DNA of 64,000 nucleotides from a bacterium. Lineage in GTDB: Bacteria > CG2-30-53-67. The notes beneath the pieces are model-generated. The model was given only the letters and a program-made list of their open reading frames with translations, was not told the DNA's origin and searched no databases. Location of the stretch: positions 7,091 through 71,090 of the forward strand of contig CAKKPE010000107.1 in NCBI GenBank assembly GCA_919901565.1, written 5' to 3'. Positions 54,033 to 64,000 of the stretch are shown piece by piece (the first letter of the stretch is position 1; each line of letters opens with the position of its first letter). Position numbers and translations under genes: made by a program.

Positions 54033-55595
54033 TTATTTCGGATGAGATTCCTTATTGGGTCCCATGATGGCGTTGGAGGGGCCGTCCAGGGCGAACAAGA
54101 GGAGCCCGGTGAGAAGGTAAGCGGCAAAGAATTTATAAGGGGTTGTGGTTTGGATCTGCCAGGGAAGGAAGATCTCGCCGCTCGCAAAGGGGGAGTGGAT
54201 AATGCCGAAAAGCGAGAAAACCCCAGCCGTCAAGAGAAAGGCCGCGGCGATCTTGAGCCGTCTATCAATAATAAAAGCGGTGATGGAGCCCCAGAGGAGC
54301 GATGAGAGGATAAAACCATTTCCCAGCATCATGATGGTCTGAAAGGTGACGGCCACCTCGCCGGTCAGATCCGAGGCTTCTTTCCCGAGATTGGCGATAT
54401 GGCTTCCGATCTCGATGAACAGAAGATTGGCGATCACCGGAATGAAGGCCATGGCCACGGCCTTGGCATGGCGGGCCGGGCTGGCCTCAAAGGCCTGGGC
54501 CGTAATCTCGAGTCCGATGAAGACCAGGATCGGGGCCACGGCCGCTTCCGGGAGGAGATTGACGAAAAAGGATAGGTAGCCGAGGATACCGCCCAGGCCG
54601 ATAAAGACAGCGGTCGCCAGGGTGTACGCGGACCTCCCTCCCATATCCTTGTAGGCCGGATGGCCGATGTAAGGGGTGCTCTGAAGGATTCCGCCGCAGA
54701 GGCCCGCAAGGATGGTCCCGATCCCGTCGGCCAGGATGATGGTCCTGCTGTTGTATTCATCCCCGGCCGCGGCCGCGGACTCCGTCACGTCAATCCCTCC
54801 CACCACAATGGCCAGCGCAAAGGGCACGGCAATGGGGAGATATTTCAGGGCCTCAGTCATTCCTTCCCAGAAGCCGAGAGTGGGCAGAGGAAGGCCCACG
54901 CTCAGTTGGAGTCTCGGCAGATGCTCTTCCGGGATCACCGAAATACCGGTCAGGTGAAGAAGATAATAGATGACCGTTCCGATCAGGACGGCAGCCAGGG
55001 CCCCGGGCATCCTGAATGGGAACTTGATCTTGGCAATCAGGGTCATCAGGATGATCCCCAGAGAGACAAAACCGACTATGGGATTGGAAAAAATCTTGAG
55101 TGAAGGGAAGAAGGCGATCAGCATCATGGCCACGGCGGCAATGGAACCGAGGAGCCCTGCCCGCGGCACGAACCTTCGTATCGCAGGGCCGGCCCAGGCC
55201 CCGATGATCTTAATGATCCCCATCAGGATGATAACCGCCGTGGTGATGTGCCAGACCAGGATCGGGTCCTTGAACTTCAGATAGGCCGGGCCGATGATGC
55301 CGAAGGCCAGCCCGAACGTGGACGGCGTGTCCAGCCCCAGGGGCATGGCCGTGACATCGTCGCGGCCCGTTTTTTTGGCCAGGCGAAAGGCGAGAAAGGT
55401 ATAGACCAGGTCCCCGAACAGCACGCCGACCGCCGTGCCAGGAAGCATCCGGTAGAGCACGATTTCTTTGGGGAAGCCGAAGACGCCGATCAATATTCCG
55501 GCCATGATCACCAGGTCGGACATGTTGTCCAGCATCAGCCCGAAAAAGGCGTTGATATCCCCTATCCGGGCCCAGCGGTATCTGAACTCTGCCAT
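54033..55595 (-). CDS. Polytopic membrane permease (12+ TM segments), family uncertain (NCS2/SulP-like)
   Basis: 520 aa, strongly hydrophobic throughout, Gly-rich TM helices. Confidence 0.55.
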   Translation of the reverse strand: MAEFRYRWARIGDINAFFGLMLDNMSDLVIMAGILIGVFGFPKEIVLYRMLPGTAVGVLFGDLVYTFLAFRLAKKTGRDDVTAMPLGLDTPSTFGLAFGIIGPAYLKFKDPILVWHITTAVIILMGIIKIIGAWAGPAIRRFVPRAGLLGSIAAVAMMLIAFFPSLKIFSNPIVGFVSLGIILMTLIAKIKFPFRMPGALAAVLIGTVIYYLLHLTGISVIPEEHLPRLQLSVGLPLPTLGFWEGMTEALKYLPIAVPFALAIVVGGIDVTESAAAAGDEYNSRTIILADGIGTILAGLCGGILQSTPYIGHPAYKDMGGRSAYTLATAVFIGLGGILGYLSFFVNLLPEAAVAPILVFIGLEITAQAFEASPARHAKAVAMAFIPVIANLLFIEIGSHIANLGKEASDLTGEVAVTFQTIMMLGNGFILSSLLWGSITAFIIDRRLKIAAAFLLTAGVFSLFGIIHSPFASGEIFLPWQIQTTTPYKFFAAYLLTGLLLFALDGPSNAIMGPNKESHPK

Positions 55596-56202: not shown

Positions 56203-56706
56203 CTATTGCCCCAGCTTCCTCTTCTCCTCCAGGGTGCGGCGGAGAATAGGCAGGGCCGCCTTGTCCTTGTCACGTCCAAGAAGTCCCTTCATCTCAATCA
56301 GTGTCTCAAGATTCAGGATCTTCACACTGAACCCTTCACCTATCTGAAGTTCGGATGTATATTTTAGGAGATCGTCGAAACCCTGGCCTTGTCCTATCTC
56401 ACCAAGGAGATCCAAAGGCCCTGCTCGGGTCATAAGAAGGTGGTGCCCGGGTGATGCCAATGGGTCCCGTTGAGGTTTGAGCCTTCGTTCGGGCTTTTCC
56501 CGATAATAAGTTTCCAGTGAATCGAGAGCAGTAATAAGCCGGGAAAAATTATCGGCATGGCGGGAATGCACGATGTCAAGGTCAAACGTGGTTACGGGGG
56601 CTCCATGCAGAACGGCGCACACCCCGCCCACCACGATGAACTCCACCTCGTGCCTGAGAAGAACCTCAAGGATGATCCGGAAATCAGGCGCTTGTTTCTT
56701 CACCAC
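56203..56706 (-). CDS. Nucleotidyltransferase-fold protein (MNT/DUF6036-like), likely a TA or defence component
   Basis: EVEFIVVGGVCAVLHGAPVTTFDLDIV is a minimal nucleotidyltransferase motif (GG…DxD). 167 aa. Confidence 0.55.
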   Translation of the reverse strand: MVKKQAPDFRIILEVLLRHEVEFIVVGGVCAVLHGAPVTTFDLDIVHSRHADNFSRLITALDSLETYYREKPERRLKPQRDPLASPGHHLLMTRAGPLDLLGEIGQGQGFDDLLKYTSELQIGEGFSVKILNLETLIEMKGLLGRDKDKAALPILRRTLEEKRKLGQ

Positions 56707-56887
56707 GAATTCTCATGACAGATCTGATGTGATTCTGAAGAGTTTCCAGCCGTTCCTCAGGCGTCATGGAGAGCATCCAACGGATAACCGTAAGATCAAC
56801 GCCATCCTCGCTGTAGGCCGTCTCGCTCCCGGGATATGAATGTCCCTCCTCATCCACGCCGTGATCGGCCCGCTTGTTAGGATTCAT
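56684..56887 (-). CDS. Small partner protein (67 aa), translationally coupled to the nucleotidyltransferase
   Basis: 23-nt overlap with the downstream nucleotidyltransferase gene. No domain recognised. Confidence 0.35.
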   Translation of the reverse strand: MNPNKRADHGVDEEGHSYPGSETAYSEDGVDLTVIRWMLSMTPEERLETLQNHIRSVMRIRGEETSA

Positions 56888-57147: not shown

Positions 57148-57534
57148 TTACAATCGTTTCTCAGAACCGTCCCGCGGACTCGCGGACTCCCACGAACTCG
57201 ACAGGGAAGGAAGAAGCTTTTTCAATTGTGGGGACAGCGTCCCCGATATTCGGGGGTAAAACCGGTAAAAACGGAGATATCTGTATAATTGTCGCTGGTT
57301 GCAGTTGCTGATCTTCAGGCGGGTCAGAGTATCGGCCAGTTCTGAAAGCAGCTTGTCCCCATAGGTTGCCCTATCGGTGCCTTGCAACTCAAATTCCGCA
57401 ATATAAAGACCGATCATCCAGTTTTTCAGAGAGAGGCTAATGTTGACGGCCTTGCCGGCCTGAGCAGCCAGATGATTATGAACCTGCCGGATGGATTCGA
57501 CAAGACGATTGAAGGTCATGGTGGTATTTTTCAT
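57148..57534 (-). pseudogene. DUF1016/YhcG-family (PD-(D/E)xK nuclease-like) gene, truncated after the N-terminal domain
   Basis: YIAEFELQGTDRATYGDKLLSELADTL…LYRYLRFYRFYP matches the DUF1016 N-domain. The expected LSWSHY continuation is replaced by unrelated sequence and an early stop. Confidence 0.55.
57158..57175 (+). repeat. 18-bp direct repeat TTCTCAGAACCGTCCCGC, copy 2
   Basis: Identical to 56154-56171. Lies inside the 3' end of the truncated DUF1016 ORF. Confidence 0.75.
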
Positions 57535-57768
57535 TTCAGCAGCGCCTCCTTCAGAATGGCCTTCAGTTTGTCGCGGAGCTTGGCGGTCTCGGCCTCGCTC
57601 TGCTCAAGTTTGGCAAGCAGCTCAGCCGGGTCGCCGCGGTCTTCATCGACAACGTGCGGATTCTTGAAATCGAGATTGTAGTTTAGCGCCTTGATCTCGT
57701 CTATCGTAACCTTCCAGGCAACTTCATTCTCCCGCTTGATATTTCGCTCTAAAAATCCTTTGACTTCC
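57531..57768 (-). pseudogene. hsdM: C-terminal remnant (about 75 codons) of a type I restriction-modification methyltransferase HsdM
   Basis: The minus-frame translation …NEVAWKVTIDEIKALNYNLDFKNPHVVDEDRGDPAELLAKLEQSEAETAKLRDKLKAILKEALLK* matches the HsdM C-terminal domain (isleeIaendYNL…). An in-frame stop lies immediately upstream. Its stop overlaps the DUF1016 start as ATGA. Confidence 0.5.
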
Positions 57769-57826
57769 GGCAGGTCATTTCAAATGTCTTTCGATAGACG
57801 GGGAATAACACCTGCGGCCCCTGCGT

Positions 57827-61026
<3,200 letters not shown>

Positions 61027-61030
<4 letters not shown>

Positions 61031-64000
61031 CCTTCACCTTCAATGATTGACCAGACGCGGTGATAGCTCTCGCCTCGGTCGCCAAGCGCGGTTCTCCACG
61101 TGTTCACGTTCGCCGCCCGAAGCTTGGCTCGCACCTCGTTCAGGGGTTCAGACGCGCCCACCCCCAACGACTTGGCCAACGGCGCGGCAGCGGTGCGCGG
61201 TACGCCCAGAAGTCGCAGAGCAACGGCCTCATCCGAGTTCACGCCGTAGTACACACGCGCAGGCAGATTTCGAAGAACGCGCTGGTCCTCCGCGGACATC
61301 GCGTCGAAGGAGTCGCCGAGGGTGAGCGACTGCAGGGCGGCCAAGCCCCACGAGGCCGTCTGCGTGAGCCGACCGAAGACGCTTCTGCAGCAGCGGGTCA
61401 TCGCCGCAACCGGATCCCCGGCGCCCGTGCTCTCCTCGTCGTCACCCGACTTCTTCGAGAAGTATTCCGTCGCCATTTCGGTGAGAGGGCGTCCCTGCAC
61501 CCAGTCGCAGATGATCCGTGCGAGCATGTCGCCGTTAGGTTGCAAGCCGCCTGTAACCTCCTTGAGTGGCTCCCGCAGCTCTGGCACCTGGAGCAAGACG
61601 CCCATCATGCGCTGAAGATCGTCTCGGCGGGTGCCGAACAGCTCAGATGACCATACCCCGCTTGTCAGGTTTGCCGCGTTCACGCGGACCAGAGTGTTGC
61701 TAACGGATTCCCATGAGAAGCCGGTGGCGTCGACGAGCTTCAGCGGCTTGCCCTTTATGCGCTCGGCGTAGTTGTAGACGCCCTGCACCAAGCTATCGGC
61801 CCAGCCCTTGTGGCTCTTCCGCAGCGCCTGAAAGCCAAGCGTTCCGCGAAGGATCTGCTCGACCTCTGCGGCGAAGCGCTCGTGGTTGCCTAACTGCCGA
61901 TAGGTATGCGCGAGGTACTGCACAAACGACGACCAACCTGGCTGCCACGCGAGCGTCTCGAGTTGGAGCAGCTTTCCTTCAGCATCGGCGCGCTGCACCA
62001 TGTCGATCAGCGTCGAGTTCAAGGCACCGACGGACCGTCCGATGAACTCCTTTAGCCTCTCCGCTTTTGCGTCATTGTGACCGGCGAGCGCGACGATGCC
62101 GAGGTCGCCTTGATCCACGCGACCCGCACGACCTGCGATGTTCCAGAAATCCTCGGGCGGCATGTCTTGCCCATACGGATACTGGTGACTCGCGAAGACG
62201 ACGCCGGAGACCGGAAAGTTCACGCCCTGCGCGATGGTCGTCGTCGCGACGAGCACGCTCAGCTTCGATTGCTCCGTCAGCCACTCGACAAGCGTTCTAG
62301 TGTCCTCGGAGAGCCCGGAGTGATGAACTCCAACGCCGTACTCGAGCAGGGCTATCAACGGAAAGTCCTGCCCCATTTCGTCGGCAAGGAACCGTCGAAT
62401 GTGGACTAGGTCATCGTTGCCCACAGACCGGCGGTTCTCATCAACCTTGAGCGTCCCAGCAACTCCCCAGCTACTTCCCGGCGTGTCAACCAGAACAATG
62501 ACCGTTCCCCGCTGATGGAGGACCTGCGCTACCGCTGCTGCGAGCTTTCCGGGCGATCCAGAAACCGCGGACCATGAGAGCCCCAGCGGACGCCGCTCTC
62601 CAACGTCCAGCGCCTCTGGCACCTCAATGGTGTTCCGCGTCGTGTGCTGGGTGACAAGCCGCACCCCGAAGTCACCGCGCTTCTGGCCCTTCTGGGGCCG
62701 TGCGATAGCGATAACGCGATCGTTGGGACTCCAGTCAACACCGAGTTCGATGTTCTTGTTGCTGTCAGGCGACAGCCACCGCGCGATCTCAGCGGCGTTG
62801 TGAATGAACGGCGTGAGCAGCAGGAACTGCGCGTATCGACATTCCCGGTTGATCGTGGCAAGCAGCAGCTCCAACTTCAGGCCGCGCGCTTGGGATGCGA
62901 GCCCGTGTGCCTCGTCGACGACCACAAGGGTCAACGGTCGACCGATCTTTTCCTCCCAGCCGCCACGAAGCATGAGATCTAGCTTCTCTGGTGTCGTGAC
63001 GAGGATGAGAAACTGTCGTCCGGCATCCGTGTCGGTCAGCATGCCGGCTTCGAGCCCATCGATATCGAGAGCGGGGCTTACCTTTTCGACGATGCTGCCG
63101 AGGACGGCCAAGTCCCGTCGAAGGCGAAGCGTGAGCTGGTTAACGAGTGCACGGGTCGGCGCGAGGTACGCGACCCAACCGCGCTCTTGGTCGAACTGGT
63201 TGAGCGCCTGGAGAATGCGGAATTCCGCGATGAACGTCTTTCCGCTCGACGTCGGAAGGCTCACGACGACGGAGCGATGACCCGAGCCAAGCAGTCCCTT
63301 CTCGCGCAGGGTCCGTCGCTGGGGGGGGAGCATCTCGAAGATCGGCTGCTGCCGGTCGCGCGAAACCAACGACTCCACGAACCGCGTTACGCGACTATTC
63401 ACTGCCCGGGTCACAGTCCAGATGCTGTTATCGACGAGGACCCGAGCGGTTCGAGCGAGCAGACGAGCTAGAGATTCGCGCTCCATGTGTTGACCACGCC
63501 CGGCAGCGCCGATAGCGCGGTCAAATTGCGCCTCAAGCTGTTCCCGCACGTCGTAGTGACCGTCCACCGAGCCTTGAGTGAGATAAACGCCGAGAATCTC
63601 GGCAGCCTTCGCGAGGTGGTACTCGGTGATGAGCTCCCACGCGGGCCGCGCGTCCCTTCGCGCTTCAGCCTGGGCGATGAATTCTGGTTCGTGTTCGCGC
63701 TGGTCGGTACGTAGTGCTGCCACGCGCTGCTGTACCAGGTCCAGATCCCCCCAACCCTGCTTTCGGAAGAGGCGCAACCAGATGTCGAGGATGCAGGACC
63801 AGACGCGGATACCCCAGTCTTCCGAATCCAGAGGGAGTTGAGGCAGATCCTTTTCGATGAGAAGACGACGAACATCGGCCCCACGGTCACCCAGTACGCC
63901 GAGGGCACCGAGGCGCACGAGCCATTCCGCTGCCTCAATGGGCGCTTCGGGACACGTCAGCGAGCGTGCAACTTGGAATGCATCCGTGGCAGTGGCTTGA
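61027..64000 (-). CDS. Large SF2 DEAH-box helicase (over 990 aa), partial with its N-terminus beyond the window end; stop overlaps the hsdR start as ATGA
   Basis: Motif I LPTSSGKT, motif II VVVDEAH, motif [12 protein letters not shown]. The frame stays open from 63918 through 64000. The track's first Met is a GTG and is not the true start. Confidence 0.8.

Follow-up and report, generated by a model that had tools for sequence, protein, structure and literature searches.

A 64,000-nucleotide stretch of contig CAKKPE010000107.1 (assembly GCA_919901565.1, positions 7,091 to 71,090; termed here the window), from a bacterium of GTDB lineage CG2-30-53-67, ends within an operon carried by a horizontally acquired island with a GC content of about 63%. 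Very probably, this operon is a type I restriction-modification (R-M) operon in which a Hachiman-like nuclease-helicase pair is nested between hsdS and hsdR. The pair corresponds to PDC-M23, one of the 145 phage defence candidates that Payne et al. (2024, bioRxiv 10.1101/2024.01.29.577857) compiled from genes found inside BREX, DISARM and type I R-M operons. An original prediction, made from the letters of the window alone, had regarded the same genes as a possible non-canonical arrangement, in which hsdR was either augmented with a large helicase or reused in a BREX-, DISARM- or Hachiman-like system, and had given as an alternative that hsdM and hsdS lie upstream of the helicase.

The nuclease-helicase pair and its operon

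The PDC-M23B gene encodes a HamB-like, Ski2/Hel308-type superfamily 2 (SF2) helicase and is located at positions 61027..64000 on the minus strand, where 61027-63999 forms one open frame of 990 codons without a stop before the window end. The original description of a helicase of more than 990 amino acids that runs off the window was accurate, in that residues 69-1058 and the stop codon fall inside the window and the first 68 codons beyond its end. Sequence past this point was provided by an identical contig (ENA ERZ1292631, 73,117 nt; locus L001), on which window position 64000 corresponds to position 1746. There, the helicase start was located 203 nt past position 64000, giving a complete protein of 1058 amino acids, and this extension, which had been suggested originally as a check, revealed not only the helicase N-terminus, but also PDC-M23A and a partial hsdS. 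With the 1.7 kb past the window included, the gene order is hsdS, a 265-amino acid gene (PDC-M23A), the helicase gene and hsdR. Each junction consists of a 4-nt overlap, namely ATGA between hsdS and the 265-amino acid gene, GTGA between the latter and the helicase gene, and ATGA between the helicase gene and hsdR (...GAAGGATGAGCGGC...), the last of which, formed by the helicase TGA stop and the hsdR ATG, had been noticed originally and was read directly in the sequence.

The hsdR gene (57827..61030, minus strand) was recognized by translation, Pfam, PADLOC and TIGR00348 as encoding an intact type I restriction subunit of 1067 amino acids, as had been claimed. Its product contains the Pfam domains HSDR_N, SWI2_SNF2, T1R_D3-like and T1RH-like_C, and scores 582.7 bits on TIGR00348 (cut-off 284.55) and 1092.6 bits on the PADLOC REase_I model. 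The window itself contains no hsdS, again in agreement with the original prediction, and neither a hidden Markov model (HMM) from related loci nor tblastn searches with 11 HsdM proteins from those loci identified an hsdM. The upstream hsdS (L001:3-752), approximately 1 kb beyond the window end, comprises a 249-amino acid 3'/C-terminal half that is cut at the contig end, and was matched by PADLOC Specificity_I (178 bits) and Pfam Methylase_S; exact-match scans of metagenome contigs for an overlap past hsdS found none. In the closest relatives (loci L079, L081, L002 and L007), hsdM is located upstream of hsdS. The closest long contig, L079, whose PDC-M23A is 90% identical, encodes hsdM (535 amino acids), hsdS (464), PDC-M23A (265), PDC-M23B (1058) and hsdR, with overlapping starts and stops linking hsdM through to PDC-M23B. 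The possibility raised originally, that hsdM and hsdS lie upstream of the helicase, is thereby borne out by the hsdS of L001 and the hsdM-hsdS-A-B-hsdR operon of L079.

SF2 motifs I (PTSSGKT), II (DEAH) and VI (AGRAGR) are intact in the helicase and invariant in its homologues, with K322 and D430/E431 as putative catalytic residues, and the Pfam domains DEAD, ResIII and Helicase_C were identified. In PADLOC searches, the window fragment matched PDC-M23B with 1327.6 bits, the next family being HamB1 with 177 bits, and the full-length protein from L001 matched it with 1356.2 bits across profile positions 4-1060 of 1060. The HamB1 alignments exceeded the helicase core, covering residues 175-914, and a score of 70.9 bits was obtained on BrxHI. 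Sequence searches of the PDB retrieved Ski2-like, Brr2 and Hel308 helicases, together with HamB (8vx9_B) at an E-value of 1.2e-20, whilst matches to the NCBIfam Hel308-type and ligase-associated DEXH models were partial (114.9, 92.3 and 77.4 bits, against cut-offs of 887, 1200 and 850).

An AlphaFold2 (AF2) model of the helicase was built on P0121, a full-length homologue that is 93% identical. The top three Foldseek matches of this model were the HamB structures 8vxa, 8vx9 and 8vxy (E-values of 2e-17 to 2e-16, template modelling (TM) scores of 0.54-0.58), with TMq values of 0.55-0.58 across approximately 1160-1215 columns. Hel308 gave TMq values of 0.32-0.34, and Hel308 and Pol-theta together 0.32-0.41, ranking behind HamB. 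Residues 1-280 of the model are predicted to be all-helical, mostly with a predicted local distance difference test (pLDDT) score of 73-92, and it is in this region that HamB carries its HamA-binding bundle. Hel308 lacks such a bundle, and the whole-length TM of the model is 0.54-0.58 to HamB against 0.32-0.34 to Hel308, a comparison of whole-length scores with no residue-level superposition.

The 265-amino acid gene directly upstream of the helicase gene lies outside the window (L001:749-1546), and its product matched PDC-M23A with 303.3 bits (E-value 3e-91) across profile positions 8-261 of 263. No usable match to this protein was obtained from Pfam, NCBIfam, the PDB sequences or a PDB profile search. 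When its AF2 model was compared with the PDB using Foldseek, the sole match below an E-value of 1e-3 was HamA (8vxy_A; E-value 8.4e-6, TM 0.53-0.56). Residues E83/E86/E90, D122, E139 and K141 are invariant in 24 aligned homologues, and an acidic helix precedes the D122...E139-x-K141 arrangement, the three residues of which are located on predicted strands 123-129 and 132-143. The catalytic residues of HamA are E138 and K140 (PMC12278908). A conserved D-E(X)K catalytic motif is therefore present in PDC-M23A, and its model displays a PD-(D/E)xK core with the insertions that bind HamB, as in the HamA fold. On its predicted structure, PDC-M23A is a PD-(D/E)xK nuclease with a HamA fold, for which E139/K141 are the candidate catalytic residues. 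The Hachiman-like option of the original prediction thus gains a predicted HamA-fold nuclease gene upstream of a HamB-like helicase.

Distribution of the pair in other genomes

The PDC-M23A alignment was scanned against 185,579 species genomes, from which 75 loci were retrieved, and HMMs built from these loci were used to map HsdM, HsdS, HsdR, PDC-M23A and PDC-M23B. The loci were distributed across the Chloroflexota, Spirochaetota, Planctomycetota, Myxococcota, Acidobacteriota and Cyanobacteria, and were also found in the Bacillota (Moorella), the Actinomycetota and several proteobacterial classes, with PDC-M23A identities to the protein of the window locus typically of 50-90%. All 73 loci that hold both genes have the nuclease gene directly upstream of the helicase gene and in the same orientation.

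Same-strand hsd genes were present in 30 of the 75 loci (about 40%) and flanked the pair on both sides in 19. The gene orders, in which M, S and R denote the hsd genes and A and B the pair, were M-S-A-B-R, M-A-B-S-R, M-S-R-A-B, A-B-M-S-R and A-B-R. Conversely, among the 39 loci with flanks of 6 kb or more on each side, 24 had no detectable hsd gene within the flanks retrieved. The addition of EcoAI-type seeds produced matches in two further loci only, these being a BREX PglX and a type IV enzyme: in L048 (1523-5467, plus strand) the pair is situated downstream of BREX PglX (1615 bits), and in L054 (2267-6169, plus strand) downstream of a type IV methyl-directed restriction enzyme (390 bits), neither locus having type I genes. 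The HsdR partners belong to unrelated families, with identities to the window HsdR of 65-81% in some loci and 24-32% in others, against 65-90% for PDC-M23B, and in the loci with 24-32% HsdR identity the helicase remains 65-77% identical.

These variable positions, divergent HsdR families and hsd-free loci indicate that the pair is an autonomous cassette, which has repeatedly landed in and travelled with restriction operons, and not a co-evolving subunit or co-factor of HsdR. The proposals of hsdR reuse and of a helicase-augmented R-M system were not upheld by these loci, and the supposedly non-canonical arrangement is instead that of a type I R-M operon which houses a previously catalogued candidate. 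HsdR, HsdM and HsdS were the only recurrent neighbours across the 75 loci, and a conserved third, HamC-like gene beside the pair was consequently rejected. No mobility gene recurs beside the pair in these loci, though in L079 it adjoins Mom and terminase genes.

Several individual loci displayed further features. In L079 (13968-17190) the hsdR gene was called as a 44-amino acid open reading frame (ORF) overlapping the end of the helicase gene, followed after a 16-nt gap by a 1023-amino acid ORF, which together sum to the 1067 amino acids of the window HsdR. The hsdR downstream of the pair in L081 (7269-7599) was likewise called as a 44-amino acid ORF, and the samples of L079 and L081 are independent; a possible cause of these split calls is a frameshift, or a change that inactivates the gene, around codon 44. 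In Moorella thermoacetica DSM 21394 (L012, 5827-20496, plus strand) three systems are embedded in one type I operon, in the order hsdM, the GmrSD-like HEC-05, PDC-M23A-PDC-M23B, Ppl (split into 374 and 561 amino acids), hsdS and hsdR. A Gammaproteobacterial metagenome-assembled genome (MAG; L014, 3536-18259, plus strand) carries extra genes among hsdM, hsdS and hsdR around the pair, encoding a PDC-S23/S05 protein of 363 amino acids (398 bits) and proteins of 645 and 457 amino acids with weak pAgo and Aga-SIR2-like matches, and L015 and L019 are similar. The HsdR downstream of the pair in a Candidatus Schekmanbacteria MAG (L005, 13965-17576, plus strand) is 1203 amino acids in length and contains a Peptidase_S24 (LexA-like) domain at residues 322-453 (E-value 6e-9), between the HSDR_N nuclease and the SF2 motor, an unusual insertion for a restriction subunit.

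The GC-rich island and the resident locus

The GC content of hsdR (0.633) and of the helicase gene (0.623) exceeds that of window positions 1-55600 (0.507), with the step at the hsdR stop, confirming the GC jump reported originally. By composition, the junction between the GC-rich island (0.62-0.645) and host-like sequence (about 0.50-0.52) was placed at 57780..57826. No tRNA gene was found in the 40-64 kb region, nor a terminator-like site in 56.8-58.2 kb, and the second boundary of the island is off the contig.

Adjacent to the junction, at 57531..57779 on the minus strand, is an EcoAI-family hsdM pseudogene remnant consisting of the last 82 codons and the stop, in the frame that follows an in-frame stop. 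This C-terminal fragment, the existence of which the original prediction had correctly reported, was found by reading the three minus-strand frames and then confirmed by tblastn, which retrieved plasmid HsdM genes (about 50% identity, range 42-57%, E-values of 1e-10 to 3e-11). These plasmids carry hsdR-hsdM-hsdS loci, in which the matches fall at the 3' terminus of hsdM. In an alignment with a 489-amino acid HsdM of the EcoAI family, the remnant covered residues 411-483 (E-value 1.2e-14), and Pfam N6_Mtase was matched weakly, over profile positions 275-304 of 311 (E-value 0.018). It had escaped the HsdM HMM and tblastn searches based on related loci because it belongs to another family. We rejected the remnant as a lost partner of the intact hsdR, the role in which it had been cast originally, since its GC content is host-like (0.522), it lies downstream of hsdR and it is of the EcoAI family, whereas the intact HsdR scores 43 bits on the EcoAI model (cut-off 550 bits) and is 23% identical to an EcoAI-family HsdR.

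The stop of the remnant is overlapped by the ATG of a truncated DUF1016/PDC-S02 gene (AAATGA; 57148..57534, minus strand) that encodes 128 amino acids and the N-terminal domain only, as identified by Pfam (DUF1016_N, E-value 4.5e-11), PADLOC (PDC-S02, 74 bits) and tblastn, in which residues 33-122 alone of a full-length PDC-S02 protein (401 amino acids) were covered. Most simply, these remains can be read as a resident type I locus with an embedded DUF1016 gene, truncated where the GC-rich hsd(M)S-A-B-R island abuts it, and it was probably the island that truncated this EcoAI-type hsdM-DUF1016 locus. The resident locus, too, carried an embedded defence candidate before it decayed.

Two other regions near the island were noted. 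In the host-GC stretch adjoining it, two overlapping ORFs of 67 and 167 amino acids (56203-56887, minus strand) may constitute a toxin-antitoxin-like pair, the longer having a sub-threshold match to a DUF2204 nucleotidyltransferase (E-value 0.0077). A 520-amino acid ORF (54033-55595, minus strand), with a local GC content of 0.57-0.60, had no match in Pfam, NCBIfam or PADLOC.

Relationship to known defence systems and proposed function

PDC-M23 was catalogued by "guilt-by-embedding" as cassette CAS_00096 (FAM_02460>>FAM_00699), recorded 161 times and marked "assign as candidate" (bioRxiv 10.1101/2024.01.29.577857). The locus described here agrees with that candidate in full-length matches to both models, in gene order, in same-strand adjacency and in type I embedding, and differs in nothing substantive. 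The arrangement has therefore been catalogued already, and the locus is a good example of it and not a new kind of system. The word 'Hachiman' does not occur in the text of Payne et al. (bioRxiv 10.1101/2024.01.29.577857).

Compared with the type I Hachiman system HamAB of Escherichia coli ECOR31 (PDB 8VX9, 8VXA and 8VXY; PMC12278908), PDC-M23B is likewise a Ski2-like SF2 helicase with intact ATPase motifs, though only about 15-16% identical to HamB in structural alignment, and PDC-M23A lacks a HamA/DUF1837 sequence match. Type II Hachiman consists of HamC/DUF3223 together with HamAB (PMC8565338), whereas HamC is found neither in the window locus nor in its 75 relatives. Among plasmid-borne relatives of PDC-M23B, the nearest is nonetheless the helicase of a type II-like three-gene locus on plasmid pT173a of Ensifer canadensis (L083, 3743-8502, plus strand), which encodes a 286-amino acid protein, the helicase and HamC2/DUF3223 (282 bits). 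This helicase scored best on PDC-M23B (595 bits) and is 30% identical to PDC-M23B over 86% of the query. The 286-amino acid protein had no match to HamA models, but one UniRef record for a member of its family calls it DUF1837, and the family aligns colinearly with PDC-M23A, albeit with weak statistics, through an E / D / (E/Q)xK core in which the Ensifer-type protein has QxK where PDC-M23A has ExK. The Ensifer locus, which adjoins an integrase, VapBC and an IS21 element, looks intermediate between PDC-M23 and type II Hachiman.

The AbpAB system of E. coli (PDB 8ZUE) differs in that AbpA is a 531-amino acid protein with an extra Cap4-type nuclease domain and an inactive HamA-like site, whereas PDC-M23A is a single-domain protein with an intact ExK. 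PrrC in EcoprrI (hsdMSR) is alike in being a second defence function encoded among co-oriented type I R-M genes, but PrrC acts as an anticodon nuclease under the physical control of the R-M complex and is almost exclusively found embedded, whereas the PDC-M23 pair is predicted to be a DNA nuclease-helicase module and frequently occurs alone. Models for the BREX and DISARM signature genes (PglX/PglZ/BrxC and DrmA/DrmB) had no match among the genes scanned within 47.6-64 kb of the window or among the four L001 genes upstream of it. Taken as a whole, PDC-M23 seems to represent a branch of Hachiman that has diverged in sequence, and shares with Hachiman the predicted fold, the catalytic motif, the helicase partner and the operon architecture, but not the HamA sequence family.

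A number of points weigh against this interpretation. PDC-M23A had no Pfam match to HamA/DUF1837 (PF08878) at an E-value of up to 0.1 and no PADLOC HamA match at up to 0.01, and its alignment, when compared using hhalign, gave a probability of 0.1% against a single Bacillus cereus HamA sequence and of 11.9% (E-value 0.0025) against the Ensifer-type A family, the latter being colinear but unconvincing. Its homology to HamA rests on predicted structure, because it is not recognized at the sequence level, and the AF2 models are themselves of limited confidence, with a moderate pLDDT of 74.6 for PDC-M23A and 64.8 for the helicase, in which the RecA1 region is poorly predicted; the alignments behind both were shallow, containing only sequences at least 67-72% identical. 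No paper mentioning PDC-M23 came up in the literature library that was searched, and it stands as a catalogued candidate. The contig ends inside hsdS, and a complete R-M system in this genome is presumed from the relatives. Lastly, the association of about 40% with type I R-M genes leaves room, as a minority possibility, for a functional link between the two.

Four other explanations were weighed against a Hachiman-like pair nested in a type I operon. That the pair assists the type I enzyme as an accessory, instead of being an independent system, and serves either as a guard, in the manner of PrrC in EcoprrI, or as an amplifier on HsdR-made ends, is improbable. Such a role would suit the four same-strand genes with their 4-nt overlaps, the embedding of 19 of the 75 loci with Hsd genes as sole recurrent neighbours, and the PrrC precedent, and Hachiman is activated by DNA damage and ends, such as a type I enzyme makes. 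It is difficult to reconcile with the 24 well-flanked loci that lack hsd genes, to which extra type I seeds added matches in only two loci, with the varying position of the pair and the conservation of PDC-M23B beside differing HsdR families, or with the occurrence of the pair beside BREX PglX, beside a type IV enzyme and, on a plasmid, with HamC. We consider it very unlikely that the pair serves the replication, maintenance or exclusion of a mobile element and not host anti-phage defence: its rampant horizontal transfer, with 60-90% identity between phyla, and the proximity of Mom and terminase genes in L079 and of an integrase and IS21 in L083 are set against the lack of any recurrent mobility gene, the recurrence of restriction or BREX contexts, and fold matches to an experimentally proven defence complex.

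The hsdM remnant, as the only hsdM sequence in a window without hsdS, could also suggest that hsdR is an orphan, recruited after the decay of hsdM as the effector of a helicase-led system. Such an account is highly improbable, given that hsdS is located upstream in the same operon, that the closest relatives possess a full hsdM-hsdS-A-B-hsdR arrangement, and that the remnant, being of the EcoAI family, of host-like GC and downstream, was never the partner of the intact hsdR. Least probable of all is an ordinary DNA-repair helicase of the Lhr, Hel308 or HrpB type placed by chance beside a restriction gene. Although the partial NCBIfam matches and the Ski2, Brr2 and Hel308 matches in the PDB sequences point in that direction, the NCBIfam scores of 77-115 bits fall well short of cut-offs of 850-1200, the full-length match is to PDC-M23B and the best structural matches are to HamB. 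Moreover, the PDC-M23A nuclease gene always precedes the helicase gene, the pair is patchily distributed across phyla at 60-90% identity and on a compositionally foreign island, and neither conserved synteny with repair genes nor vertical inheritance was seen. Of the two outcomes that the original prediction had named as counting against it, an upstream hsd gene with a known embedded candidate is in essence what was found, and an ordinary Lhr/HrpB repair helicase is not. Every sequence feature that the original prediction had described was confirmed; its interpretation stood as regards the Hachiman-like and upstream hsd elements, and fell as regards the remnant as a partner and the reuse or augmentation of hsdR.

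The identity and architecture of the locus, as a Hachiman-like pair nested in a type I operon, can be regarded as highly likely, whilst a Hachiman-type mechanism as such is somewhat favoured, by analogy with HamAB of E. coli (PMC12278908). According to this analogy, PDC-M23A and PDC-M23B would form a complex, in which the N-terminal helical bundle of PDC-M23B would hold the nuclease inactive whilst intact double-stranded DNA is surveyed. Loading of the helicase on DNA ends or damage during infection would lead to ATP-dependent unwinding, and this in turn would activate the nuclease, resulting in indiscriminate DNA degradation and abortive infection (PMC12278908). The type I enzyme would act independently and in parallel, as a sequence-specific first line, and embedding would provide co-transfer and co-expression.

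Functional wiring of the pair to the type I enzyme, beyond its nested position in the operon, is unlikely. In one variant, the helicase might load on HsdR-made ends in unmodified phage DNA, with the nuclease completing its destruction; in another, the pair might stand guard over the R-M complex and respond when the latter is disabled by anti-restriction proteins, as in the case of PrrC and EcoprrI. If true, such wiring would account for the location of about 40% of the PDC-M23 loci, which are inside or next to type I operons and translationally coupled to them.

As a Hachiman-like pair within a type I operon, the locus provides a clear, naturally occurring case of "defence within defence", in which the pair and the restriction enzyme travel together between phyla. 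The new point is the structural link from PDC-M23 to Hachiman, of which PDC-M23 appears to be a branch that is recognizable by structure but invisible to sequence searches. This link gives PDC-M23 a concrete, testable mechanism and candidate catalytic residues, and suggests that HMM-based counts underestimate how widespread Hachiman is.

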